Notes under the pieces: model-generated
What the model saw: only the letters and a program-made list of their open reading frames with translations
Database searches by the model: none
What the model was told of the DNA's origin: nothing
Program-made: the position numbers and the translations under genes
NCBI GenBank assembly: GCA_005801425.1
Contig: SYDY01000121.1
Span: 19,722-83,721 of the forward strand
Direction of reading: 5' to 3'
Length of the DNA: 64,000 nt
Source of the DNA: Bdellovibrionales bacterium
Lineage (GTDB): Bacteria > Myxococcota > XYA12-FULL-58-9 > SYDY01
Part shown: positions 8,966 through 48,446 of the stretch, piece after piece
How the letters are laid out: each line of letters opens with the position of its first letter
How positions within the stretch are numbered: position 1 is the first letter of the stretch

Positions 8966-9159
8966 AAGACGCATCCTCCATCATATCTCCCCACCATTGC
9001 TCCACTCAATCCGGCATGTATGCCAATGATTGTTAATGGACGATTAAAACATACCAATTCTCATTGGCACCTGACAATGCGGATCGACTCTCAAGAAAAA
9101 ATAACAAAAAATGACATTCTCTTGACGCGCTGCATGGAACCGTGGCGTGATAGGCCCGC

Positions 9160-10248
9160 ATGAAACGACTCCGCGAACTCGAAACGCATGCCACGGCTGC
9201 CTGCGCAGACGTGGGGTTGATCGGTCGCGATCTTGTTGCATCTGTAGTGCCTCATATCGTCAGTGGTTTGCTCCTACGCAGGGGCTCAGACATTGTTCAC
9301 ATTCAAGGCGATGTGGGATCAGGAAAAACACGCCTCGCCCATGCATGCCATCGCGCCATGGTACGAACTTTTGGTGAGCCACGAACTGTTATTGATGCCA
9401 TTGAACAAAAAGCGCATGACAACGGTACAGGGCTTCTTTTTGATCATGTCACAGAACTTGAATCAATCCATCAGCATCGCGTGATCACGGCACTTGATGC
9501 ATTTGAGCGTCATACCGCCGAAACTCCATCAAACGCAGCCTTGTGTTTGCTCACATCCTCGGTACCCGAGCACGGTGAGCCTTGCAAAATAACGGGAAGG
9601 GCGGCCGCGCACATCGTGATCCCGCCTCTCCATGAACGCAGCAACGACGCTGCAAGCATCGCCCAACACATTGCCATGGAAACCGCGCAGCATATCGCCA
9701 CCCAGGATTTTGCGGGGCTCACACGTCAAGCACAACAAGATGTCGTTGCCGCGGTAACACAAGCCAAAGTCACCAACGTACGAACATTGCGTACGGCAAT
9801 CCGTGAAGCCATGTTTCAACGCGAAGCGACGGGTGCTGCTTCCGATGTTCTTGATAGCATGGCCTTGATGCCCACACTTGAACGTCACTTTGCATTCAAT
9901 GAGACAAGCCGCCATGTCCATGAATTGCATGCGCTGCGCGGGCCCCATTCACCCACCGAACACATGCAATCGGTGGCCACACTGCACGACATTCCAGCCG
10001 AGGCATTGGAAGAACTGTGTCATGGGGTTCAAGGCATTATCAACGGGATGGACGAACCCTCGCGTTCCTACAAAAATATTGTTGAACGAACCAATCGCAT
10101 GTCAAAGATTGCTTTGTGGTTGCTGAGTGGTGCACAAACACAAGCCCAATTTCGACGATTTTTTGGTTCCACAGGCGTCACCATGCCACCCAAAAGTGTC
10201 GCCCATCAAATTTACCACGAAGTGTTTCCGGAGCAGCGCGCACCATGA
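9160..10248 (+). CDS. Degenerate sigma-54-activator (bEBP)-like AAA+ protein lacking the GAFTGA loop and Walker B Glu
   Basis: Collinear with the bEBP central domain: LIGRD, Walker A GDVGSGKTRLAHA, Walker B-like GLLFDHVTEL (DH instead of DE), QHRVITALD, ALCLLTSS, IVIPPLHERSNDAASI and VTNVRTLRTAIREA (compare WPGNVRELEN). About 25 aa where GAFTGA should lie are missing. No receiver or sensory N-domain. Confidence 0.6.
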   Translation: MKRLRELETHATAACADVGLIGRDLVASVVPHIVSGLLLRRGSDIVHIQGDVGSGKTRLAHACHRAMVRTFGEPRTVIDAIEQKAHDNGTGLLFDHVTELESIHQHRVITALDAFERHTAETPSNAALCLLTSSVPEHGEPCKITGRAAAHIVIPPLHERSNDAASIAQHIAMETAQHIATQDFAGLTRQAQQDVVAAVTQAKVTNVRTLRTAIREAMFQREATGAASDVLDSMALMPTLERHFAFNETSRHVHELHALRGPHSPTEHMQSVATLHDIPAEALEELCHGVQGIINGMDEPSRSYKNIVERTNRMSKIALWLLSGAQTQAQFRRFFGSTGVTMPPKSVAHQIYHEVFPEQRAP

Positions 10249-10967
10249 CAACCTCCGGATCCATGGTTATTCAAACAGAGGCCGGTTACGATCTCATTCG
10301 TGCCCATTTCGATTTAATTTTAGAGCTGCAAGCCACACCTCTCCCGGTTCAAACCGTTGCGGATCGCATCAAAGACAACATCACATTACAAAGACTTATC
10401 AAACACGGCATTTTGCGCCAAGATCGAGGAAAAATTACTGCGGCAAACGCCGTAATATCTCAGTGGCGTCGTGAAGGCATGGTGGCATTTCTTGAAAAAT
10501 ATGTATTGCCGGCCATACGGGCCAACTTACATAATGTGAGTTATACCCATGCAACACTTTTAGAATTATCCATGCCTGCAGCAGAAATCGGCCTGGTACG
10601 TGAAGGTACCATCGCTGCATTGCTTAATGATTTAGCCTCCATCCCCGAAGCAATCGATGAAAAGGCATCCACAGCACGCCTCACGATCAGTCTAGTGGGC
10701 GCGACCACATCACTGCCCCCTGGTGAGGACAGCGAACGCTTTGCACAGCTTGTTCGTGCTGCATGCGAACAGCGCTCCATGAACCCCACGCCCAGCACCG
10801 CTGTTCTCACGCAATTTGATTGTCTTGCTGACATAGAACGGTACCATGCCACGCTGTCACGTGCCCAAGAATTCTGTGATGCCCTTGACTCGAAGTGGAA
10901 AAACAACGACCAAAGTAATTTTCACCTTCTCGTCACAACCCACTGGCAACAAACATGCGGAAATTAA
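10245..10967 (+). CDS. Hypothetical protein, translationally coupled to the upstream AAA+ gene (ATGA overlap)
   Basis: ATG at 10245 overlaps the TGA of the upstream ORF. MTTSGSMVIQTEAGYDLIRAHF... has no recognisable motif. Confidence 0.5.
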   Translation: MTTSGSMVIQTEAGYDLIRAHFDLILELQATPLPVQTVADRIKDNITLQRLIKHGILRQDRGKITAANAVISQWRREGMVAFLEKYVLPAIRANLHNVSYTHATLLELSMPAAEIGLVREGTIAALLNDLASIPEAIDEKASTARLTISLVGATTSLPPGEDSERFAQLVRAACEQRSMNPTPSTAVLTQFDCLADIERYHATLSRAQEFCDALDSKWKNNDQSNFHLLVTTHWQQTCGN

Positions 10968-11209
10968 TCTTCACCACCGCGATCACACTCATCCTGTCAT
11001 CCACCGCACAGGCTGGTGGCGTTATCACCGACGGCAAGTGCAAGAGTTACTATCAACCGGGCTGTGGCTACGACGGATATCGCGATGAATCATTGTACGA
11101 CGACGATGAATGGGAATTGTTCATTTTACTTTGGTACTGGTTTTATTCCCATCAGCCCCAGCCAACAACTGACGATGGCAATCAATCAGAATGTGGATCA
11201 AAGAAGTAA
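10955..11209 (+). CDS. Small secreted Cys-containing protein (84 aa)
   Basis: Signal peptide MRKLIFTTAITLILSSTAQA, then a Cys/Tyr/Asp-rich mature region. Overlaps the upstream stop by 13 nt. Weak support. Confidence 0.35.
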   Translation: MRKLIFTTAITLILSSTAQAGGVITDGKCKSYYQPGCGYDGYRDESLYDDDEWELFILLWYWFYSHQPQPTTDDGNQSECGSKK

Positions 11210-11619
11210 TCAGGCACAAGCTCTCTCAATGGTATAAGCACAAACAAACGTTCATGCATCGCGGGATGTGGGATCGTAAGCCTGGGATGGTTGATCACCT
11301 CATCCCCATACAACAAGATGTCCAAATCGAGTGTACGCGGTGCCCAACGCTTATCGCGCACGCGACCATGCTTCTGCTCGATCAAAAGCAAGATATCCAA
11401 GAGTTCAAGCGCTGAGAGATCTGTCTGAACTTCGGCCACTGCATTTAAAAAATCGGGGCCTGGTGGAGACCCGGGCAAAACAAGCGCTTCGGTTTGGTGA
11501 ATGGAAGAGATGCGAACAACAGCAATACCATGCTCTTGCAACATACGCAGCCCCGATGCAAAGGCGGATCGTACATCCCCCACATTGCCGCCCAATGCGA
11601 TGTACGCGGTGACCATCAA
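11182..11619 (-). CDS. folK: 2-amino-4-hydroxy-6-hydroxymethyldihydropteridine pyrophosphokinase (HPPK)
   Basis: YIALGGNVGD, LDLDILLY and TIPHPAMHERLFVLIPL motifs. Confidence 0.85.
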   Translation of the reverse strand: MMVTAYIALGGNVGDVRSAFASGLRMLQEHGIAVVRISSIHQTEALVLPGSPPGPDFLNAVAEVQTDLSALELLDILLLIEQKHGRVRDKRWAPRTLDLDILLYGDEVINHPRLTIPHPAMHERLFVLIPLRELVPDYFFDPHSD

Positions 11620-12400
11620 TCGTTACCAGCCAACACATCACGCATGCTGTATAGCCCCGGCGTTCGGCCTAAAAGCCAGCGTGCGGCCCTAAGTGCGCCT
11701 GCAGCGAAAATATCGCCACTTGAACTGCGATGGGTAATTTCCAAACGTTCACCATCACCTAGAAAAAATACGGTATGATCGCCACTGGCATCGCCACCAC
11801 GCATCGGCGCATAACCGAGCTCGGACGACTGGCGTGCTTCTGTATGCTGGCAACGGTCAAGCACATCATGCACATCAGGGCGACCTGCTTTGACCGCACG
11901 GCCAAGCGCAAGACCTGTACCGCTGGGCGCATCGCGTTTGTGACGATGATGGATCTCACTGATCTCCACATCAAATGGCACGCCCAAACGTGCAGCCGCG
12001 AGTTCTACAAGTTCGAGCATCACGTTGACACCGGTACTTAAATTGGCCGCCTGCACCACTGCGCAGCGTTCCGCAAGCGATCGTATCGTTAGGTTATCGG
12101 ATGCAGACATGCCCGTAGAAGCAAGCACGTAGCCCGTACCATGGGCCGCACAAAGCGCCGCCACAGAGGACACAGCCGCTGGTGCTGTAAAATCAATGAC
12201 CACATCGGCTTTGGGTATCACGACTTCGGCGTGCTCAATCACAAGGCCACCTTCGATGCGATCACCAAGACGTTCTTCGCGATCGATACCGCCCACCACC
12301 ACAATGTCCGTCGACTCTGCCGCCAAACGCAACACACGACCGCCCATGCGTCCTGTCGCACCCAAAACAGCAAGTCCACAACGTTTTTTATTGTTCACGA
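11616..12400 (-). CDS. dapB: 4-hydroxy-tetrahydrodipicolinate reductase
   Basis: LAVLGATGRMGG N-terminus and EISEIHHRHKRDAPSGTG C-domain. The track ORF extends to 12539, but the DapB fold begins near a GTG at about 12400 (VNNKKRCGLAVLG). The start is uncertain. Confidence 0.8.
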
Positions 12401-21842: not shown

Positions 21843-21937
21843 GGGGACATCCTAGTTTATCGCGTCATTCTGAGATACATTCCAGCCAGAAAAATGACGC
21901 GATAAAGTAGCTTTTTAAACACAATAGGAACACTTTG

Positions 21938-23983
21938 ATGGACTCTCTTATGAATCAAAATCCTAACTTCATTATTGAAACAATCATCACCTACGGACCG
22001 CTTTGCGCCGCTTTGCTGGCTCTGCTTTGGCTTCTCACACGTTGTATCGTCAATATTGGTCCTACAGAAATCGGAATTTTAGAACGACGTTTTTTTGGTC
22101 AATCACTGCCCACAGGCCGTGCTTTTGCAACCGGTCTCGAAGTCGGTGTTCTTGCAAAATACCTTCAGCCTGGTTTGCATTTTGTGGCGTGGCCCTTGAT
22201 GGCTGTGATCAAAAAAGTTCCCTTCGTAATCATTTCTTCCGATGAACTTGGTGTCATTACCGCTGCCGATGGCGAGACCATGCCATCAGGACGTATTTTT
22301 GCAGAAGACAAAGCGGGCGATCATCATGATAGTTTTCAAGATCCTGTGGGCTTTCTCACCCATGGCGGCATTCGAGGCAAACAGCTCCGATTTCTAACCA
22401 ACGGTACCTACAAAATTCATCCATTGCTTTTTCATGTTCAAAAAATTCTTAAGACAAAAATTCCCGAGGGTTTAATTGGTGTTGTCACGGCTTCAGACGG
22501 ACTGGCTCTTGACAATGGCCAATTGCTTGGTCGCCATGTCGAAGGACATGATCATTTCCAAAAAGCCGAAATATTTTTGCAAGCCGACGGCCAAAAAGGT
22601 CCGCAAATCGATTTTTTACGACCTGGTTCATACAATATTCTTACCGACGTTTTTACCGTTGAAATGCGCAAAGCCACGCAAATCATTGAAGACCAAATTG
22701 GTTTGGTCGAAGCCCGCGATGGTGCGCCCATGGAGCGCAATGAGATCGTCGCCTCAACACCCGATCTTGCAAAACACAAAGGCTATCAAGACGGCGAAGC
22801 ATTTTTACAGTGCGGCGGTCAACGCGGCCCTCAAGAAACAGTACTTCGTCCCGGCACCTACTACATCAATCCCTACTTGTTTGAAGTAAGCATTCGCCCT
22901 GTCACCGTGATCAACCAAGGCGAAGTGGGCGTTTTGATTTCCAATATTGGACGCGATCCCATGGATCTCACCGAAGCGTCACCCGAATCTGAATCGGGCA
23001 AACTTCGCCATGTGGTTCCCGAAGGATACCGCGGAATTCAGCGCAATGTGATTGGACCTGGCAAATACAATCTCAATCCTCTTGTCTTTTCGTTGGTCAA
23101 AGTGCCAACAACCATGCGTTCTGTGGAATGGGCACAGGATGCGCAAAGTGGCTTTAATCCGTTTGAAGTGGTGTCTCACGATGGTTTTGAAATGCGTGTG
23201 GAAGTTCGATGCCAATACCGTATTCAACCTGAAGATGCACCCTATGTGGTTCAACGCTTGGGATCGGTTGCTGAACTTGAACGCAACGTGATCCATCCAC
23301 AAATCGACGGCATCTTTCGTGCACAGGTGTCACGATCGCCCGCGATTTCTTATCAACAAAACCGTGCGGTTGAGCAAAGTGCTGCCGAAAACGCCGTGCG
23401 TGACGATCTGTTAAAATACCGCGTAGATGTGGTGTCGGTGATGATCACCAATATCCATCTTCCAGAAGCCTTGATGCGAACAACGCAGCAAAAAAATCTT
23501 GCCGAGCAAGAAGAATCCATGTTTGACGCAAAGAAAAAAGCCGAAGAACGTCGCATTGAATTTGAAAAAACAAAATCAGAAGCTGACCAACAAAGCCCGT
23601 TGATGCAGGCACGCATCGGCGTTGAAATCACAGAGCATGAAGCGAAACAGACCCAAAAACGCGCGGAAGGCGAAGCCGCTCGCATTCGTATTACGGCCAT
23701 CGCTGAGGCCGAACGTACACAGGCCATCGGTAATGCGGAAGCACACGTGACCCAAGTACGCGGTGAAGCCCAAGCCAAGGCGTATCAGGATCAAGTCAAA
23801 GCCCTCAGCGCGCAAGGCGTTACCGCCGTAGAACTTATCAAAGCGATTTCAGCCGCAGGCTTGCGCATCACGCCCGACGTGATTGTGTCTGGTACAACGG
23901 GTAGTGAAGGCAGTGGCGGCCTTGTGCAAGCACTTCTAGCGCAGGTGGTGTCGCAGCAGATCAAAACGCCTGTTGCGAAATAG
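21938..23983 (+). CDS. Flotillin-like SPFH/band-7 protein (YqiK-like) with a C-terminal coiled coil
   Basis: N-terminal TM segment, SPFH domain, and an EA-rich coiled coil (KKKAEERRIEFEKTKSEADQQ ... AEGEAARIRITAIAEAERTQ). ATG at 21938 is preceded by AGGAA. Confidence 0.8.
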   Translation: MDSLMNQNPNFIIETIITYGPLCAALLALLWLLTRCIVNIGPTEIGILERRFFGQSLPTGRAFATGLEVGVLAKYLQPGLHFVAWPLMAVIKKVPFVIISSDELGVITAADGETMPSGRIFAEDKAGDHHDSFQDPVGFLTHGGIRGKQLRFLTNGTYKIHPLLFHVQKILKTKIPEGLIGVVTASDGLALDNGQLLGRHVEGHDHFQKAEIFLQADGQKGPQIDFLRPGSYNILTDVFTVEMRKATQIIEDQIGLVEARDGAPMERNEIVASTPDLAKHKGYQDGEAFLQCGGQRGPQETVLRPGTYYINPYLFEVSIRPVTVINQGEVGVLISNIGRDPMDLTEASPESESGKLRHVVPEGYRGIQRNVIGPGKYNLNPLVFSLVKVPTTMRSVEWAQDAQSGFNPFEVVSHDGFEMRVEVRCQYRIQPEDAPYVVQRLGSVAELERNVIHPQIDGIFRAQVSRSPAISYQQNRAVEQSAAENAVRDDLLKYRVDVVSVMITNIHLPEALMRTTQQKNLAEQEESMFDAKKKAEERRIEFEKTKSEADQQSPLMQARIGVEITEHEAKQTQKRAEGEAARIRITAIAEAERTQAIGNAEAHVTQVRGEAQAKAYQDQVKALSAQGVTAVELIKAISAAGLRITPDVIVSGTTGSEGSGGLVQALLAQVVSQQIKTPVAK

Positions 23984-23992
23984 TAGGTCGAT

Positions 23993-24757
23993 TCACTCGG
24001 AAAACGCGATCAAAATCACGGTAATATTGTCTTGACCACCATTGCGATTGGCCTGACTGATAAGCTTTTGCGAAATGGCTTCAAGATCATCATGCCCGCC
24101 CGCAATCGTCTCTTCCATGTCGCGATCGTCGATCATGCCTGATAATCCATCGGAGCATAGCATATAAATATCACCAGGACGCGGTGAGAGTTTCTGGCTC
24201 TCAACCAACACCGTCGACTTCATCCCCAGTGCACGCACGATCACGTTCTTATGAGGAAAATGTTCTATTTCTTCCGGCGTGAGTTTGTGCACTTTCAGAT
24301 AATCATTGAGCAGAGAATGGTCTTCGGTCACTTGCGTCAATCGCCCATCGCGCATGAGGTACCCACGGCTATCACCCACGTGCGCCATGTATGCGCCCCC
24401 TGGGCCCGCGCTCATGGCAACCACCGTTGTCCCCATGCCCGCATAACGCGCATCGCTCTGAGACATCTCCCAGACGCGTAAATTCGCCACTTTGATGGCC
24501 GTCGACAAACGATTTTGGTCATAAACAAGCGTTTTGTCTTCTTTAAAAGGCCAGGTCATTTCCTGATCAGCCGCCGTCATTCGAAAAAATTCGGCCATGG
24601 TTTCTACCGCCAAACGCGACGCAACCTCACCACTAGCATGTCCCCCCATGCCATCGGCCACCACATAAAGGTTTTCTTCGGGAAAGAGATAAAGACTGTC
24701 CTCGTTAAGAGAACGTTTCATCCCCACGTGAGTGCTGCCCGCATACCGGATCTTCAT
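23993..24757 (-). CDS. PP2C-family Ser/Thr protein phosphatase
   Basis: GSTHVGMKRSLNEDS, VADGMGGHASGEVAS, CSDGL and GGQDNITV motifs. Confidence 0.85.
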   Translation of the reverse strand: MKIRYAGSTHVGMKRSLNEDSLYLFPEENLYVVADGMGGHASGEVASRLAVETMAEFFRMTAADQEMTWPFKEDKTLVYDQNRLSTAIKVANLRVWEMSQSDARYAGMGTTVVAMSAGPGGAYMAHVGDSRGYLMRDGRLTQVTEDHSLLNDYLKVHKLTPEEIEHFPHKNVIVRALGMKSTVLVESQKLSPRPGDIYMLCSDGLSGMIDDRDMEETIAGGHDDLEAISQKLISQANRNGGQDNITVILIAFSE

Positions 24758-24948
24758 TGCAAGCGTCGTTTCGGTTGGAGCACGGAGATTTCCTCTGCCT
24801 TATGTAAGTTTTACCACGGAGCCAAACCCCCAAGCAAGCATCGTAACACCATCCAAAAGGTTATTGACAATCAGACATGTCATAAACCATCGTCATAGAC
24901 GAGGAATTCGTTGTAAAATAAATACCAGACCCGGAGTAACAACATCCC

Positions 24949-27096
24949 ATGAGTTCCATGATCAGTTCATTTGCGGGCACAGACGTCGGCAGCATTGCCA
25001 AAAAATATGCCGATATCCTTTTGGCCGGGCTCATTATGGGGGTCATCGGGATGATGATCATCCCCTTGCCAACACATGTCCTCGATCTTCTCATTGTGCT
25101 CAACATCACGATCGCCGTCGCGATGCTGATGATCGTCATTTACATCAAACACGCACTCGAATTAACAACGTACCCCACCCTTATTCTTATCACGACACTC
25201 TTTCGACTCGCACTCAACGTATCCAGCACACGCCTTATTTTACTCGACGGTGATGCAGGCGATGTCATTTATGCCTTCGGAAACTTCGTTGTTCGCGGAA
25301 ACTTCGTCGTTGGCGCGGTGATCTTTTTGATCCTCACGCTCATTCAATTTTTGGTCGTTGCGAAAGGTGCCGAACGCGTTGCCGAAGTTGCTGCCCGCTT
25401 TACCTTGGATGCCATGCCCGGCAAACAAATGTCTATCGATGCGGATTTGCGTGCAGGTGCCTTCGATCTTGAAGAAGCCCAACGCCGCCGCGGACGCCTA
25501 GGCCGTGAATCCCAATTGTTTGGCGCCATGGACGGTGCCATGAAATTCGTCAAAGGCGATACCATCGCAGGCCTTATCATCACCGTCATCAATATCATCG
25601 CGGGCATCATCATTGGTATCACCATGATGGAACTTTCCGCCGCCGAAGCGGTTCAAAAATTTGGTATTCTCACCATCGGTGACGGTCTTGTGTCGCAAAT
25701 ACCCGCCCTTCTCGGCGCCATGACCGCCGGTATCATCGTGACCCGTGTAGGCGGCGATGATGAAAACGCAAACTTGGGCGATGACATCGCCAAACAGGTT
25801 CTTGCACAACCCAAAGCATTTGCCATTTCCGCAGGTCTTTTGTTTGGCATCGGCCTCGTGCCAGGCCTACCTACTTTCGCCTTTATGACCATGGCACTCG
25901 CGGTCGGCTTTATGGCCTACAGCCTCATGCGCGGAAAAATAGGACCCAAAAACAAAGACGATCCGGCCGCGCTCAACGAAGTCCAGCAACAAGGCGACGA
26001 TACCCGCAAGAAACAAATTCAAGCGGCAAAGCGGCAAGAAGGTCAGTCCCAACAAATGCTGCCGGTTGTTACGCCTATTGCATTGGAAGTGGCATCCGAT
26101 CTTATCCCCTTGGTGGAAGATTCCGGATCCAACAAGTTCCTGGGCGAGATGATCCCAATGATGCGCGATGGTCTCTTCTACGAAATCGGCGTCAAGTTTC
26201 CAGGTCTTCGCGTACGTGGCAACGAAGCCGATCTCGCACCTGGCACATACATCATTATGATCAACGAAGTACCTTTGGTTTCCGGCACCGTCTCTCTGAA
26301 CAAAGTGCTGGTCAACGACACGGTCGATCGCCTCACGTTGCTCAATATTCAAGGCGAATCGGCCATCAATCCTGCCAATGGATCCGAGTGCGCGTGGATC
26401 CCTGCAGTCCATGCCGACATCGCCGAACAGGCGGGCCTCACCACCTGGGATGCATCCGGCTATATCGTGCTGCATCTATCCAGTGTGCTGCGTAAAAATG
26501 CCGCCGAATTTGTGGGCATCCAAGAAGTTCAAAATATGCTCGAACAACTCGAGCAGGCCTTTCCAGCCTTGGTCAAAGAAGTCGTGCCTAAATCTGTATC
26601 GCCTTTCCAGCTCACCGACATCATGCGTCGTTTGGTGGAAGAGGAAATTTCCATCCGCGATTTGCGATCGATTTTGCAAGCCCTCGCCGAATGGGGCCAA
26701 GTCGAGAACGACACGGTCATGCTCACCGAATACGTGCGCAATGCCCTTAAACGTTACATCTCACACAAATTCACCCGAGGCGGAAATACACTGGTTGTGT
26801 ATCTCCTCGATCCACACATCGAAGAAACCGTCCGTGGTGCCATTCAGCATACCCAAAGCGGTTCGTTCTTGGCCCTCGAACCCGAAGTCACCCAAGAAAT
26901 TCTATCCGCAGTCCGCACCGAAGTTGGCAACCTGCCGCCCACGGCGCAAAACCCTGTCATCCTTACCACCATGGAAATTCGCCGCTACATGCGCAAGCTT
27001 GTTGAACTCGAATTCCCTCACCTCGCCGTATTGAGCTACCAAGAATTGTCGCCAGACATGAACATCCAGCCGATTGCGCGTATTACGTTGGATTAA
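24949..27096 (+). CDS. sctV: Type III secretion system export apparatus major subunit SctV (YscV/LcrD/InvA family), non-flagellar type
   Basis: 715 aa, FHIPEP family. Closer to YscV than FlhA: DAGDVIYAFGNFVV, GAERVAEVAARFTLDAMPGKQMSIDADLRAG, ESQLFGAMDGAMKFVKGD, LGDDIAKQVLAQPKA, and C-terminus LSYQELSPDMNIQPIARITLD. Has the 8-TM N-domain plus a cytoplasmic domain. Confidence 0.85.
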   Translation: MSSMISSFAGTDVGSIAKKYADILLAGLIMGVIGMMIIPLPTHVLDLLIVLNITIAVAMLMIVIYIKHALELTTYPTLILITTLFRLALNVSSTRLILLDGDAGDVIYAFGNFVVRGNFVVGAVIFLILTLIQFLVVAKGAERVAEVAARFTLDAMPGKQMSIDADLRAGAFDLEEAQRRRGRLGRESQLFGAMDGAMKFVKGDTIAGLIITVINIIAGIIIGITMMELSAAEAVQKFGILTIGDGLVSQIPALLGAMTAGIIVTRVGGDDENANLGDDIAKQVLAQPKAFAISAGLLFGIGLVPGLPTFAFMTMALAVGFMAYSLMRGKIGPKNKDDPAALNEVQQQGDDTRKKQIQAAKRQEGQSQQMLPVVTPIALEVASDLIPLVEDSGSNKFLGEMIPMMRDGLFYEIGVKFPGLRVRGNEADLAPGTYIIMINEVPLVSGTVSLNKVLVNDTVDRLTLLNIQGESAINPANGSECAWIPAVHADIAEQAGLTTWDASGYIVLHLSSVLRKNAAEFVGIQEVQNMLEQLEQAFPALVKEVVPKSVSPFQLTDIMRRLVEEEISIRDLRSILQALAEWGQVENDTVMLTEYVRNALKRYISHKFTRGGNTLVVYLLDPHIEETVRGAIQHTQSGSFLALEPEVTQEILSAVRTEVGNLPPTAQNPVILTTMEIRRYMRKLVELEFPHLAVLSYQELSPDMNIQPIARITLD

Positions 27097-27348: not shown

Positions 27349-27744
27349 TTAACGCTTCGAGAACTGGAAGCGCTTACGTGCACCTGGTTGGCCGTATTTC
27401 TTACGCTCAACCTTACGAGGATCGCGGGTCATGAAACCAGCTTTTTTGAGTTCAACGCGGTGGCCGATTTCCATTTCGCACAAAGCACGCGAAATGCCGT
27501 GACGAATCGCACCTGCTTGACCAGCCAAACCACCACCGCAAACGTTCACGGAGATGTCGAGTTTGCCATTCTGAGCAGTCACATCAAGCGCTTGGCGAAT
27601 GATAAGACGAAGCGAAGGCCTGCCGAAGTAATTTTCCAACGAACGATTGTTTACGGTGATTTCACCGGAACCCGCTCTGATCCAAACGCGTGCACTGGAT
27701 TCTTTACGACGACCTGTACCGTACCACTTCAATTGCTCAGACAT
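27349..27744 (-). CDS. rpsI: 30S ribosomal protein S9
   Basis: [22 protein letters not shown] ... [17 protein letters not shown]. Confidence 0.95.
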
Positions 27745-27760: not shown

Positions 27761-28201
27761 TTAAGCTGCGATGATGAGTTCTTGGGGCTGTTGGGCACCA
27801 TGAGGATGCTCACTGCCTTTGTAGACCTTCAGTTTCTTAAACGTCGCACGTCCCAATGTTCCCTTAGGAAGCATGCCCTTCACCGCAATCTCAATCATGC
27901 GCTCAGGATGAGCGGCACGCATTTGTGATGCAGTTTTTGAAACCACGCCACCCACCCAACCGGTGTGATGATGGTAAAGCTTCTTATTTTCTTTATCACC
28001 GGTGAGACGCACTTTTTCAGCGTTAATCACAATGACGAAATCGCCACAATCGGTGTGGGGTGTAAACCCAGGACTTCGCTTGCCACGAAGAACCGAAGCA
28101 ATCTCGGTGCAAAGACGACCCAAAACTTTGTTTTCGGCATCGACGATGAACCAACGACGCGCTTCTAAGGCCTCTTCTTTGCTTACGCTGACCGTAGGCA
28201 T
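27761..28201 (-). CDS. rplM: 50S ribosomal protein L13
   Basis: [35 protein letters not shown] ... [19 protein letters not shown]. The track ORF extends 23 codons upstream to 28270, with an N-terminal near-duplicate (see findings). Confidence 0.9.
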
Positions 28202-28480
28202 AGCGACACTGGCGCGCTTATGCTTTTTTGCTCGATCTTTAATTTCTTTGCTAACGCTAATCGTATGCATTGCGCTTCCACCCGTTCTTTGCTGCTTCGC
28301 TTCACATGATACAAATAGAGCGAAGGCGGTCGTTTTAAAGCGGAAGACCCCAAGATGTCAAGCAAACTGGGGTACCATCACAGTAACTTATCTCCAACCC
28401 TCACCCGCCTTGCCAAGGCTCGGCGACCACTCCCGCAAGCGGGAGAGGTGAGACATTATCACCCGCCCCGCCTTATGTGA

Positions 28481-45508: not shown

Positions 45509-46131
45509 TGCACCCTCGCCGTAATTCCCTGCTGCATCATGATCTCACCTTCTGTGAGCAATAATTCATCAAGACGTGCTGCAATGATTTCTGGGGATGC
45601 CTCTTTGCATGCAAGACGCACAAAAAGTCGATAATGCCCAGCTTCTGCACGAGCAAGCCGTGAATAAAATGTGCGAAGCGACGGATCTTCCAAGTATTCG
45701 CCCAGTAAAAACAGCCGTTCCCAAGAACGTGCTTCGACAATGCCAACAATCAGAAGCCAGTCGATCTTACGCGCACTGGGATGGCCTTGTCGCCGAAGTT
45801 TCATCAACGCAACCACGTAAGGATCACCCCGGTCTGAACCAAGCATGGCACCACGTGCATGAAGCAAATCAACAACCTGTTGAAAATGTCGCAATTCCTC
45901 TTGCGCCAATCGTGCCATAGCCAACAAAAGATCTGTGTCTTCAGGATATGAACTGATCAAAGAGATCGCAGTCGCGGCCGCCTTGCGTTCGCAATGGGCA
46001 TGATCTTGTAACAATGCAATGAGATCGCTTTTGGCAACATCAACCCATATTCTAGGGGTAGGAACTTTAAGGATCTGATGCGGATGTTGCATTTCGGCAT
46101 CGATACGTTCAAGGGAAATGGCGACGCTCAT
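45505..46131 (-). CDS. Putative tRNA-(ms2io6A37)-hydroxylase MiaE-like ferritin-fold diiron protein
   Basis: HCERKAAATAISLI and EELRHF ... EARSWERL ... EAGHYRLF fit two E..H diiron motifs of the MiaE family. Moderate confidence. Confidence 0.5.
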   Translation of the reverse strand: MSVAISLERIDAEMQHPHQILKVPTPRIWVDVAKSDLIALLQDHAHCERKAAATAISLISSYPEDTDLLLAMARLAQEELRHFQQVVDLLHARGAMLGSDRGDPYVVALMKLRRQGHPSARKIDWLLIVGIVEARSWERLFLLGEYLEDPSLRTFYSRLARAEAGHYRLFVRLACKEASPEIIAARLDELLLTEGEIMMQQGITARVH

Positions 46132-48446
46132 ATATCCGCACCTATTTCAATTTCAATGGCTTGAAATCCTGCATCGCGAATAGCGCGTGCCACAGAGGAA
46201 GTGCCTTCTGGGCACACGGCGATCATCGATCCTCCACCCCCACCGCCGGTAAGTTTCGCACCTGTTGCACCGTGATTGCGCGCAAGATCAACAAGCATTT
46301 CAAGTTCAGGACAGGAAACCTGCAATGCATTCAAAAGGCCATGGTTAAGATTGAATAACAAACCCAGTTCTTGCCAATCGCCTTTTTTGAGTGCTTCAGC
46401 ACCCGCAAGAACCAAAGTATCAATGTCCTGGAAAATGCGTTGATACAAATGAGGAGACGCATCAAAACCTGCACGCACGCGTGCCACCATTTTTGCGGTC
46501 AGGCTTTGAACGCCCGTCATACCGATCACCAATGGTAAAGGCTCCCCAAGTGCAATATTTGTGATGATAGGAGCTTCACCTTTTTGAAACATCATCAAAC
46601 GGCCATAGGTGGCCATGGTGTTATCAATCCCCGATGCCGTGCCATGGGCGATGGTTTCCGACGCATAGGCCAAGGCATTGACGCGTTCATTTGAAAGACC
46701 TAGCGCAAAATACGTATCCAATGCGCGTACAACAGCAACAGCCAAGGCAGCTGAGCTACCAAGCCCTGCGGCACGTGGAATTTGTGGATCGATACGGATA
46801 ATCATATCGCGATCATTCAAACCAAGATCATCCAAAATGACCGAAAGACAATCTTCCAAAGAGCTTGCATTGGCTTGCTTTCGGACCACACGTTCGACAC
46901 CCCAGGTTGGGATCACAAGTCGTATGCCGGGTGTATCAGAAGCAAGAACGCGCGCACCCACGGCCAATGGAACAGGCGCTGCAATCGCATGGGTTCCATA
47001 CACCACCGCATGTTCACCAAGTAAAATCACTTTGCCCGCACCCGTACATTCGGGTGAAAAAGCAACCTGCGGCTCAGTATCGTACGTCGTAAGTTCGCGG
47101 ATAATTTCTTGGGCCTTCCACATTTTAACTTCACCACTGGCCACCAAGGATTTTACCACCTGTTCAAAAATAGCCGATGAAGCCCCTGCGGACGCCGCCA
47201 CACTGCGTGCATGCAAATTCATATGGCCACGCTGGATCCCATCGGTGACCAAGGCACGAAGTGCCGAAAAATTTTGTGCAAGTCCTGCTGCAACCATCAC
47301 TTCAGAGAGTTGCGCTGCGGAGGGTGTCCCCAAAATACGATGGGCAAGCGCTACCATGGGATTAGACTGTAAATTACCGCCCACAACACCCACTTTGATG
47401 GGCATTTTCAGACGGCCACGTAAATTGCCTTCGGCATCTTTCCACCATTGTGTAAGCGACGTGTAAGATCCGGTACGTGCAGCATAAGCATGAGCGCCTG
47501 CTTCCATGGAACGCCAATCGTTGCCTGTCGCGATGGCAACGGCATCAATGCCATTCATAATCCCTTTGTTGTGTGTTGCGGCTCTGTACGGATCGACCGC
47601 CGCAAAATCATTGGCCAGGATCACGCCATCACATACTTCTTCGCCGCTGTAGCCTTTGCCCTCAAGACTCCTCAATGAAAACACCACTTCAGCGCATGCA
47701 AGCGCGCGATCGGCGAGATTTGATAAGATCCGAAGAAAAGCTTTTCCACCAGTCAGTTCTTCCAAGAGCGGCGCCACTTCTTCACACATACTATTCACCA
47801 TATTGGCGCCCATGGCATCGCACGTATTCACCACCAGATGTATTACAAGCATTTCGGCTTTGGTGGTCGGTGCACGATGACGAACCACTTCGACATCAAG
47901 CGCCCCACCACCGCGGGCGACCATCCGAGGATGCAAGCTGTTGGCAAGCTCAAGGATCGTTTGACGTGCCGCCATCACCGCTTGGCGTGCTTTTGTAATG
48001 GATGGAACTTGGGTAATTTGCACTTGTCCCAAAAGAACAGATTCTGCTGGAATACAACGAAAGCCACCACCAGCACGTGCTGCTAACGCAGCAGAACTGA
48101 TGGCCGCAATGATCGACGGTTCTTCAACCACCATAGGAATAATGCGTTCTACATCGTTGATCACAAAATTAAGGCCCAAGCCCATCGGTAAGCCAAAAAC
48201 ACCGATGACGTTTTCAACCATTTTATCGGCATCGCGATCGGTCAAACGAAATCGTCCCGCCAACAATGCATCGCGATCGGTCGCGCTTAAAATATTTTTT
48301 TCAACAAGAATGCGAAGGCGATCCTGTCCTGAAAGTCTGTAAAATCCTGAAAGACGCGAGGTTACCACATCATGCTCCTGCAACAACCGAAACACCTGCT
48401 TGGGCCTTATGGAGATCCAAATCGACAAGATGATTTTCTTGGGCAA
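46128..48446 (-). CDS. Fused class II HMG-CoA reductase / mevalonate kinase
   Basis: The N-terminal ~430 aa have ENVIGVFGLPMGL, DAMGANMVN, TGNDWR and GIQRGHMNLHAR (class II HMGR). After a short linker (TYDTEPQVAFSPEC) the GHMP kinase begins: TGAGKVILLGEHAVVYG, PRAAGLGSSAA, KLTGGGGGGS. No stop separates the two halves. The track start at 48446 is TTG and overlaps the upstream PMK gene by 77 nt, so the true start is probably internal. Confidence 0.8.
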   Translation of the reverse strand: MPKKIILSIWISIRPKQVFRLLQEHDVVTSRLSGFYRLSGQDRLRILVEKNILSATDRDALLAGRFRLTDRDADKMVENVIGVFGLPMGLGLNFVINDVERIIPMVVEEPSIIAAISSAALAARAGGGFRCIPAESVLLGQVQITQVPSITKARQAVMAARQTILELANSLHPRMVARGGGALDVEVVRHRAPTTKAEMLVIHLVVNTCDAMGANMVNSMCEEVAPLLEELTGGKAFLRILSNLADRALACAEVVFSLRSLEGKGYSGEEVCDGVILANDFAAVDPYRAATHNKGIMNGIDAVAIATGNDWRSMEAGAHAYAARTGSYTSLTQWWKDAEGNLRGRLKMPIKVGVVGGNLQSNPMVALAHRILGTPSAAQLSEVMVAAGLAQNFSALRALVTDGIQRGHMNLHARSVAASAGASSAIFEQVVKSLVASGEVKMWKAQEIIRELTTYDTEPQVAFSPECTGAGKVILLGEHAVVYGTHAIAAPVPLAVGARVLASDTPGIRLVIPTWGVERVVRKQANASSLEDCLSVILDDLGLNDRDMIIRIDPQIPRAAGLGSSAALAVAVVRALDTYFALGLSNERVNALAYASETIAHGTASGIDNTMATYGRLMMFQKGEAPIITNIALGEPLPLVIGMTGVQSLTAKMVARVRAGFDASPHLYQRIFQDIDTLVLAGAEALKKGDWQELGLLFNLNHGLLNALQVSCPELEMLVDLARNHGATGAKLTGGGGGGSMIAVCPEGTSSVARAIRDAGFQAIEIEIGADI

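Follow-up and report, generated by a model that had tools for sequence, protein, structure and literature searches.

The window encodes an intact non-flagellar SctV

The present study concerns a gene, sctV, on the forward strand at positions 24949-27096 of a 64-kb stretch of contig SYDY01000121.1 (assembly GCA_005801425.1), hereafter the window. The open reading frame (ORF) starts with ATG, encodes 715 aa, and follows a ribosome-binding site, GGAG, at 24933-24936. SctV proteins form the nonameric inner-membrane export gate of the non-flagellar type III machine, where they couple the proton-motive force to protein export and where their cytoplasmic ring takes up chaperone–substrate complexes. 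The Pfam profile FHIPEP matches the product with 779 bits and covers profile positions 1-656 of 657. Assignment to SctV required a score above the curated equivalog cutoff of the NCBIfam model TIGR01399 and higher than the score against TIGR01398, the model for flagellar FlhA. The product scores 833.8 bits with the SctV model, above the cutoff of 692.25, and 673.1 bits with the FlhA model, below the cutoff of 772.1.

Among solved structures, the top match is full-length Yersinia YscV (PDB 7alw; 674 bits), and the runners-up are SsaV (416 bits) and FlhA (404 bits). Residues 21-714 of the product align to YscV residues 16-704, such that the membrane domain, the linker, and the C-terminal cytoplasmic ring domain are all present and the architecture is that of a full-length gate. 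The motifs common to the two proteins include DAMPGKQMSID, MDGAMKFVKGD, and the C-terminal LSYQEL. Although YscV/LcrD thus aligns with the window protein over its whole length and shares the conserved gate motifs, it belongs to a different T3SS (type III secretion system) family, and its identity to the window protein is only in the 45-50% range. YscV/LcrD is encoded on plasmid virB/virC operons with all of its partners. The original prediction, which was made from the DNA letters without database searches, had quoted four peptide blocks as evidence for a non-flagellar SctV rather than an FlhA; all four are found in the translation, and the family scores, the YscV match, and the tree described below agree with that assignment. 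The product of 24949-27096 is an intact non-flagellar SctV.

SctV lies in a Myxococcota-only group

The placement of the window protein among export gates was addressed with a neighbor-joining tree of 54 sequences, consisting of the window protein and 53 gate proteins of named genomes, with 100 bootstraps. A scan of a species-representative genome collection with SctV, in which the closest genomes were not among the matches listed, supplied a panel for this tree. A phylogeny had been proposed as a check in the original prediction; in the tree, the non-flagellar gates are split from FlhA of Firmicutes and other flagellated phyla in 100/100 bootstraps, with the window protein outside the FlhA clade. 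FlhA has the same FHIPEP fold and type III export role as SctV but lies on the opposite side of this split and is 37-42% identical to the window protein. Chlamydial, Desulfovibrionaceae, and Ysc-type gates, including a Ysc-type Achromobacter homolog at 46%, are 45-48% identical to it.

Within the non-flagellar gates, the window protein sits in a group made up of Myxococcota only. Its closest relatives form clade A (100/100), which contains the window and the four genomes L005, L100, L101, and L102, with 78-83% identity and a G+C content (GC) of 0.50-0.67 at the locus. The sister of clade A is clade B (100/100), composed of L003, an 11.5-Mb contig, and L021, at 72-74% identity, and the next branch holds two Archangium metagenome-assembled genomes (MAGs) at 58-60% identity, again with 100/100 support. 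The union of this group with a second SctV type of the Polyangiaceae and Archangiaceae is unsupported (19/100). Homologs at 72-83% identity are numerous, and the named ones come from MAGs labeled Myxococcota, Myxococcales, or "Deltaproteobacteria", which bears out the myxobacterial origin that had been read from the protein features of the window. An identical SctV protein is recorded in the NCBI metagenome assembly GCA_005801925.1, in Logan run SRR8894381, and on a 297-kb contig.

Myxobacterial non-flagellar T3SSs branch early and are described as conserved and as lacking the secretin, needle, and translocon (PMC3459982); prey lysis by Myxococcus xanthus has recently been found to depend on one of its two T3SSs, which acts together with a Tad-like pilus (PMC12075869). 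In its branching, the window protein agrees with this "Myxo" family of non-flagellar T3SSs (Abby & Rocha 2012), as it groups with Archangium SctV in 100/100 bootstraps, and the Myxococcales "Myxo" systems, including the needleless T3SS* of M. xanthus (mxan_2434-2464), share its phylum-specific branch. However, the core genes of those systems are clustered in a long or short locus, whereas sctV is a singleton in 5/5 clade-A genomes, the window included.

No T3SS partner gene of sctV was detected in the window

The original prediction had noted that sctV is without other sct genes in the flanking ~20 kb, and the observation holds across the whole window, which reaches ~25 kb beyond the gene on its upstream side and ~37 kb on its downstream side. 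The window has 59 ORFs that reach 90 aa; a Pfam scan of 50 of them identified no other sct gene and no flagellar gene, and a tblastn search with 4,862 open frames translated from 28 non-flagellar T3SS loci returned no sct match in the window besides sctV, its only other hits being PP2C and two unrelated housekeeping matches; small, fast-evolving parts such as needle, rod, and chaperone proteins could evade both searches. The gaps flanking sctV, 191 bp and 252 bp, are too short to hide a further gene. Likewise, a search of the window for homologs of the clade-B genes next to sctU and sctV, and of those in the solitary sctU module described below, found none.

The immediate neighbors are the housekeeping and signaling genes that had been described for the locus. 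A gene for an Stp1/IreP-type PP2C Ser/Thr phosphatase (23993-24757, minus strand; NF033484, 250.6 bits, cutoff 230) is divergent from sctV. Beyond it lies a gene for a 682-aa SPFH/flotillin-like membrane protein (21935-23983, plus strand) with a Band_7 domain at residues 360-537, and farther upstream are genes for a UbiB/ABC1 kinase and MutY. On the other side, rpsI (27349-27744, minus strand) and rplM (27761-28270, minus strand) are convergent with sctV and are followed by a double M16 peptidase gene, rlmE, ksgA, and tsaD.

Relatives suggest a stepwise break-up of the sct cluster

The gene context of sctV changes along the branches of the Myxococcota-only group. In Archangium L006, sctQ (FliM/FliN), fliO, sctR, sctT, sctU, a 92-aa ORF, a TPR protein gene, and sctV are clustered, with sctV last; the position of sctS was not scanned in this cluster. 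FliO has been reported in Myxococcota T3SS operons (PMC12403147). In clade B (L003/L004), the genes that stay together are sctU, a 151-aa gene, a TPR gene, a 407-aa gene, a second TPR gene, and sctV, in this order; sctU is preceded by a divergent gene of 332 aa, and there is no sctRST within 10 kb. In clade A, sctV is alone in all five genomes, and no partner sct gene was found within ±10 kb of sctV in the four genomes other than the window. Taken together, these gene orders would represent a stepwise break-up of a sctQ...sctU...sctV cluster, from Archangium through clade B to clade A. As a separate observation, the 92-aa ORF of L006 (7256-7534, plus strand), which stands right after the full-length sctU, corresponds to the C-terminal domain of FlhB/SctU alone.

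The singleton of clade A sits in a recurrent setting. L100 and L101 have a sigma-70 gene and the PP2C gene on the minus strand, then sctV on the plus strand, and then rpsI and rplM on the minus strand. L102 departs from this layout only by the insertion of an acetyl-CoA hydrolase gene that separates the PP2C gene from sctV, and L005 retains the sigma factor gene and a frame-broken PP2C gene but lacks rpsI and rplM. The window retains PP2C, rpsI, and rplM and has the flotillin-like gene where the other clade-A genomes have the sigma factor gene. No conserved gene was found downstream of sctV across clade A.

sctV is more constrained than ribosomal protein genes

Between the window and L100, L101, and L102, SctV is 81-82% identical, compared with 64-72% for RpsI, 58-66% for RplM, and 63-70% for PP2C. 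In the same genome pairs, the nonsynonymous divergence (dN) of sctV is 0.13-0.16 versus 0.24-0.40 for the ribosomal genes, with synonymous divergence (dS) saturated. In these genome pairs, SctV has thus changed less than the ribosomal proteins S9 and L13, which argues that it is functional. Among clade-A-like matches, the cytoplasmic domain (residues 376-715) has 89% identity versus 74% for the membrane domain, and 197 of its 340 alignment columns show no variation among 120 proteins. The binding partners of this domain in known systems are chaperone–substrate complexes, the gatekeeper, and the stalk of the ATPase; that the domain is the most conserved part of the protein argues that such partners still exist. 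The alignment to YscV shows the reverse pattern, in which the membrane half is visibly better matched than the cytoplasmic domain.

GC is flat at ~0.50 along the window, with no compositional anomaly at sctV, and the GC at third codon positions (GC3) of sctV tracks that of the host genome, being 0.60 in the window versus 0.78-0.92 in the relatives. These features, together with the conserved synteny with rpsI and rplM, led us to reject recent horizontal transfer. To judge from the comparison of genomes, sctV is an old, vertically inherited gene under very strong purifying selection.

The region upstream of sctV

The divergent intergenic region between the PP2C gene and sctV (24758-24948) is, from its sequence and the alignment of relatives, the presumed sctV promoter. 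In an upstream alignment of four relatives, the promoter-like motif TTGACT-N17/18-GA(C/G)AAT stands directly upstream of sctV in L005 (~9870-9910), L101 (~9900-9940), and L102 (~3975-4010). In L102, this motif lies after the inserted gene and next to sctV even though the upstream gene is not PP2C, and must therefore be assigned to sctV rather than to a region shared with PP2C. Because PP2C is on the opposite strand, an operon of sctV with PP2C is excluded. The flotillin-like gene has the same orientation as sctV, but PP2C stands between them and joint transcription would need read-through antisense to PP2C; downstream, rpsI runs toward the 3′ end of sctV. A generic promoter and terminator scan at the sctV locus gave nothing above shuffle expectation. 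From the motif and the gene orientations, we infer that sctV is probably expressed as a monocistronic unit from a sigma-70-like promoter of its own.

Solitary sctU genes in other Myxococcota

If the core genes are separated in clade A, their SctU should be recognizable by its divergence. In paired comparisons on shared contigs, SctV identities of 87-91% correspond to SctU identities of 65-75%, from which clade-A SctU would be expected to be roughly 45-52% identical to clade-B SctU. A large group of SctU proteins, 48-53% identical to that of clade B, fits this predicted divergence. In every context examined, the sctU of this group is solitary in housekeeping surroundings, with genes like pilQ, efp, that for 2-oxoglutarate dehydrogenase, pyrG, and prkA nearby, and the loci examined have no adjoining sctRST. 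Four of these loci (L086, L089, L092, and L096, at ~8000-11700 in each) consist of a divergent gene of ~350 aa, sctU, and a gene of ~158 aa, a module that is the same as in clade B (L003), where both flanking small genes are present. The two flanking genes have no Pfam match and may encode undescribed T3SS parts. Amino-acid composition, used as a proxy for GC in matching these SctU proteins to clade-A genomes, was uninformative. The solitary, conserved sctU modules are good evidence that a scattered T3SS layout exists in Myxococcota.

Discussion

SctV, myxobacterial T3SSs, and scattered T3SS loci are already known. What is new here is a broad, uncultured clade of Myxococcota with a highly constrained single-gene gate locus at the end of a fragmentation series. 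The data make it likely that the window encodes a working SctV and that this protein serves as the export gate in a T3SS of Myxococcota type, the other genes of which would lie at other places in the genome. In such a model, an ancestral sctQ-fliO-sctR-sctS-sctT-sctU...TPR-sctV operon would have been broken up within the Myxococcota-specific SctV branch, and the clade-A sctV would have ended up as a single-gene unit driven by a sigma-70-like promoter of its own. The gene would then have settled in a stable housekeeping neighborhood, with the sigma factor and PP2C genes on one side and rpsI and rplM on the other, and the remaining core genes, such as sctU, would be expected elsewhere in the same genome. 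Both the location of the partner genes elsewhere in the genome and the nature of what the system secretes are what we infer.

Several observations weigh against this model. No further sct gene could be tied to any clade-A sctV genome when sample identifiers and NCBI accession blocks were compared, and contigs of 238-372 kb with a clade-A sctV hold none of the listed SctU proteins. The contigs with solitary sctU have a GC of 64-69%, compared with 50% for the window; clade A itself spans 50-66%. With respect to the promoter, the window keeps only GACAATCAGACA (24866-24877), which aligns to the -10-like half of the motif, and the generic promoter scan found a single consensus site, at 24890-24919, that is not above shuffle expectation. 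Finally, the gate tree is a neighbor-joining tree only and is without a Myxococcus xanthus reference.

The persistence of PP2C beside sctV raises a different possibility, namely that the phosphatase reverses Ser/Thr phosphorylation of a T3SS part and thereby switches secretion, with the flotillin-like protein organizing a membrane microdomain around the gate. The original prediction had drawn a similar hint from both neighbors. PP2C is indeed the most persistent neighbor of sctV, being retained in 5/5 clade-A genomes versus 4/5 for the sigma factor and 4/5 for rpsI/rplM: its ortholog adjoins sctV in L100, L101, and, in fragmented form, L005, and is one gene away in L102, while the other neighbors vary. 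The Polyangiaceae MAG L024, whose SctV is 44% identical to the window protein, has at 3721-7762 the order ddl and PP2C on the minus strand followed by a FIST-domain gene and sctV, with no other sct gene upstream of this PP2C-FIST-sctV neighborhood; by its gene order, we regard this locus as a second, independent PP2C–sctV neighborhood. Moreover, myxobacterial genomes have few PP2C genes (M. xanthus, 4; Sorangium cellulosum, 16; PMC2887360), and there is a chlamydial precedent in PknD, which phosphorylates the T3SS part CdsD (PMC2765968).

Against these points, PP2C and sctV are divergent and cannot be cotranscribed, and in L102 the acetyl-CoA hydrolase gene intervenes while the promoter-like motif stays with sctV. 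PP2C is not next to sctV in clade B or Archangium, no kinase or FHA-domain gene adjoins the locus, and the phosphatase is of the ordinary Stp1/IreP type. The sigma factor, PP2C, sctV, rpsI, and rplM form a syntenic block, so that common descent is enough to account for PP2C lying beside sctV. As for the flotillin-like gene, its only tblastn matches are in L001 and L002, which represent the same organism, and it is found at no relative's sctV locus. Since its adjacency to sctV is confined to one organism, we do not count the gene in the system, and the hint of a flotillin link to secretion is not borne out. Of the PP2C half of the earlier suggestion, what is left is the adjacency, which is kept through clade A and makes a regulatory link to sctV possible. 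As a whole, a gate coupled to PP2C and a flotillin scaffold is unlikely.

SctV could also be a true orphan, kept, perhaps with SctU, for a reduced or other membrane function after the T3SS was mostly or wholly lost. In keeping with this idea are the lack of a partner sct gene in the 64 kb of the window and, for the other four clade-A genomes, within ±10 kb of sctV, the long clade-A contigs without the listed SctU proteins, and the solitary sctU loci without adjoining sctRST. However, the cytoplasmic ring domain is the most conserved part of SctV, and the opposite would be expected if its chaperone, gatekeeper, and stalk partners were gone. In addition, to our knowledge no T3SS-independent role of SctV or FlhA has been described. 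We consider an orphan gate very unlikely. That the gene encodes a flagellar FlhA or is the decaying remnant of a flagellum or injectisome since lost has next to no probability and is refuted, since, although FHIPEP proteins serve both machines and the FlhA model still gives 673 bits, the protein falls below the FlhA cutoff and above that for SctV, matches YscV far better than FlhA (674 versus 404 bits), lies across a 100/100 split, and is read from an intact frame that covers the whole profile and is under stronger constraint than ribosomal proteins.

If, as favored here, sctV is a working gate with its partners elsewhere, the closest parallel in layout would be Chlamydiae, in which the T3SS core genes are spread over several loci (PMC3459982). 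The likeness lies in core genes scattered among housekeeping genes. It does not extend to the gate itself, as chlamydial CdsV is ~48% identical to the window SctV and forms a separate clade, nor to lifestyle, as nothing points to an obligate intracellular life for the window host, a Myxococcota MAG. Furthermore, chlamydial cdsV stands beside cdsU and copN and is hence not a single-gene locus. Dispersal of the Chlamydia type, as put forward in the original prediction, thus finds backing in the break-up of the cluster among relatives and in the solitary sctU genes; it is weakened by the failure to tie any sct partner to an sctV genome, and the gate is of Myxococcota and not chlamydial type. A Chlamydia-like dispersed injectisome in the window organism is therefore plausible, its scattered layout being deduced from relatives.

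Such an organization would be a second, independent example of a scattered T3SS besides Chlamydiae, insofar as the scatter seen in relatives applies. The series from full cluster to sctU...sctV to singletons offers natural material on the break-up of secretion operons and the coregulation of their parts. It also has a practical consequence, in that T3SS detectors that rely on gene clusters will overlook or under-call such systems when applied to MAGs.

One further gene in the window bears on what might be secreted. At 4726-7176 (plus strand), 18 kb upstream of sctV, is a gene for an 816-aa phosphoinositide phosphatase of the IpgD/SopB type (PF05925, 59 bits, cutoff 22), a candidate effector with an intact active-site motif, CKSGKDRT (FNCKSGKDRTSQ in the translation). 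Members of the IpgD/SopB family are T3SS effectors in Shigella and Salmonella, and a protein of this type was unexpected in a myxobacterial MAG. It hints, tentatively, at eukaryotic targets, and its secretion by the T3SS would be a further supposition. The most far-reaching combination of these elements, in which the T3SS core would be split beyond Chlamydiae into single-gene loci (sctV; sctU with its two small partners) with promoters of their own, the gate would be switched by PP2C, and the effectors would be directed at eukaryotes, is in our judgment quite unlikely; if true, it would describe a lineage of "needleless" myxobacterial T3SSs used against eukaryotic cells.

Other features of the window

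Rfam and tRNA scans of the window yielded tRNA-Leu (8520-8605) alone, with nothing near sctV. The housekeeping content of the window includes menaquinone and mevalonate operons, genes for tRNA modification and arginine synthesis, recJ, and rpsD (61868-62488). At the start of the window (3-3098, minus strand), an open frame longer than 1,032 aa runs past the edge and, being truncated there, is missed by ORF lists; the encoded protein bears a lipoprotein signal (LGLGAC), numerous repeats rich in cysteine, and a C-terminal part that is Gly-rich and β-helix-like. Divergent from the IpgD/SopB-type gene is a gene for a 281-aa protein with MORN-variant repeats (3731-4576, minus strand), the N terminus of which is hydrophobic and, by eye, signal-peptide-like. 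Lastly, a 772-aa ORF at 46128-48446 (minus strand) fuses an HMG-CoA reductase to a kinase of the GHMP family (mevalonate type) and lies 969 bp from the diphosphomevalonate decarboxylase gene.

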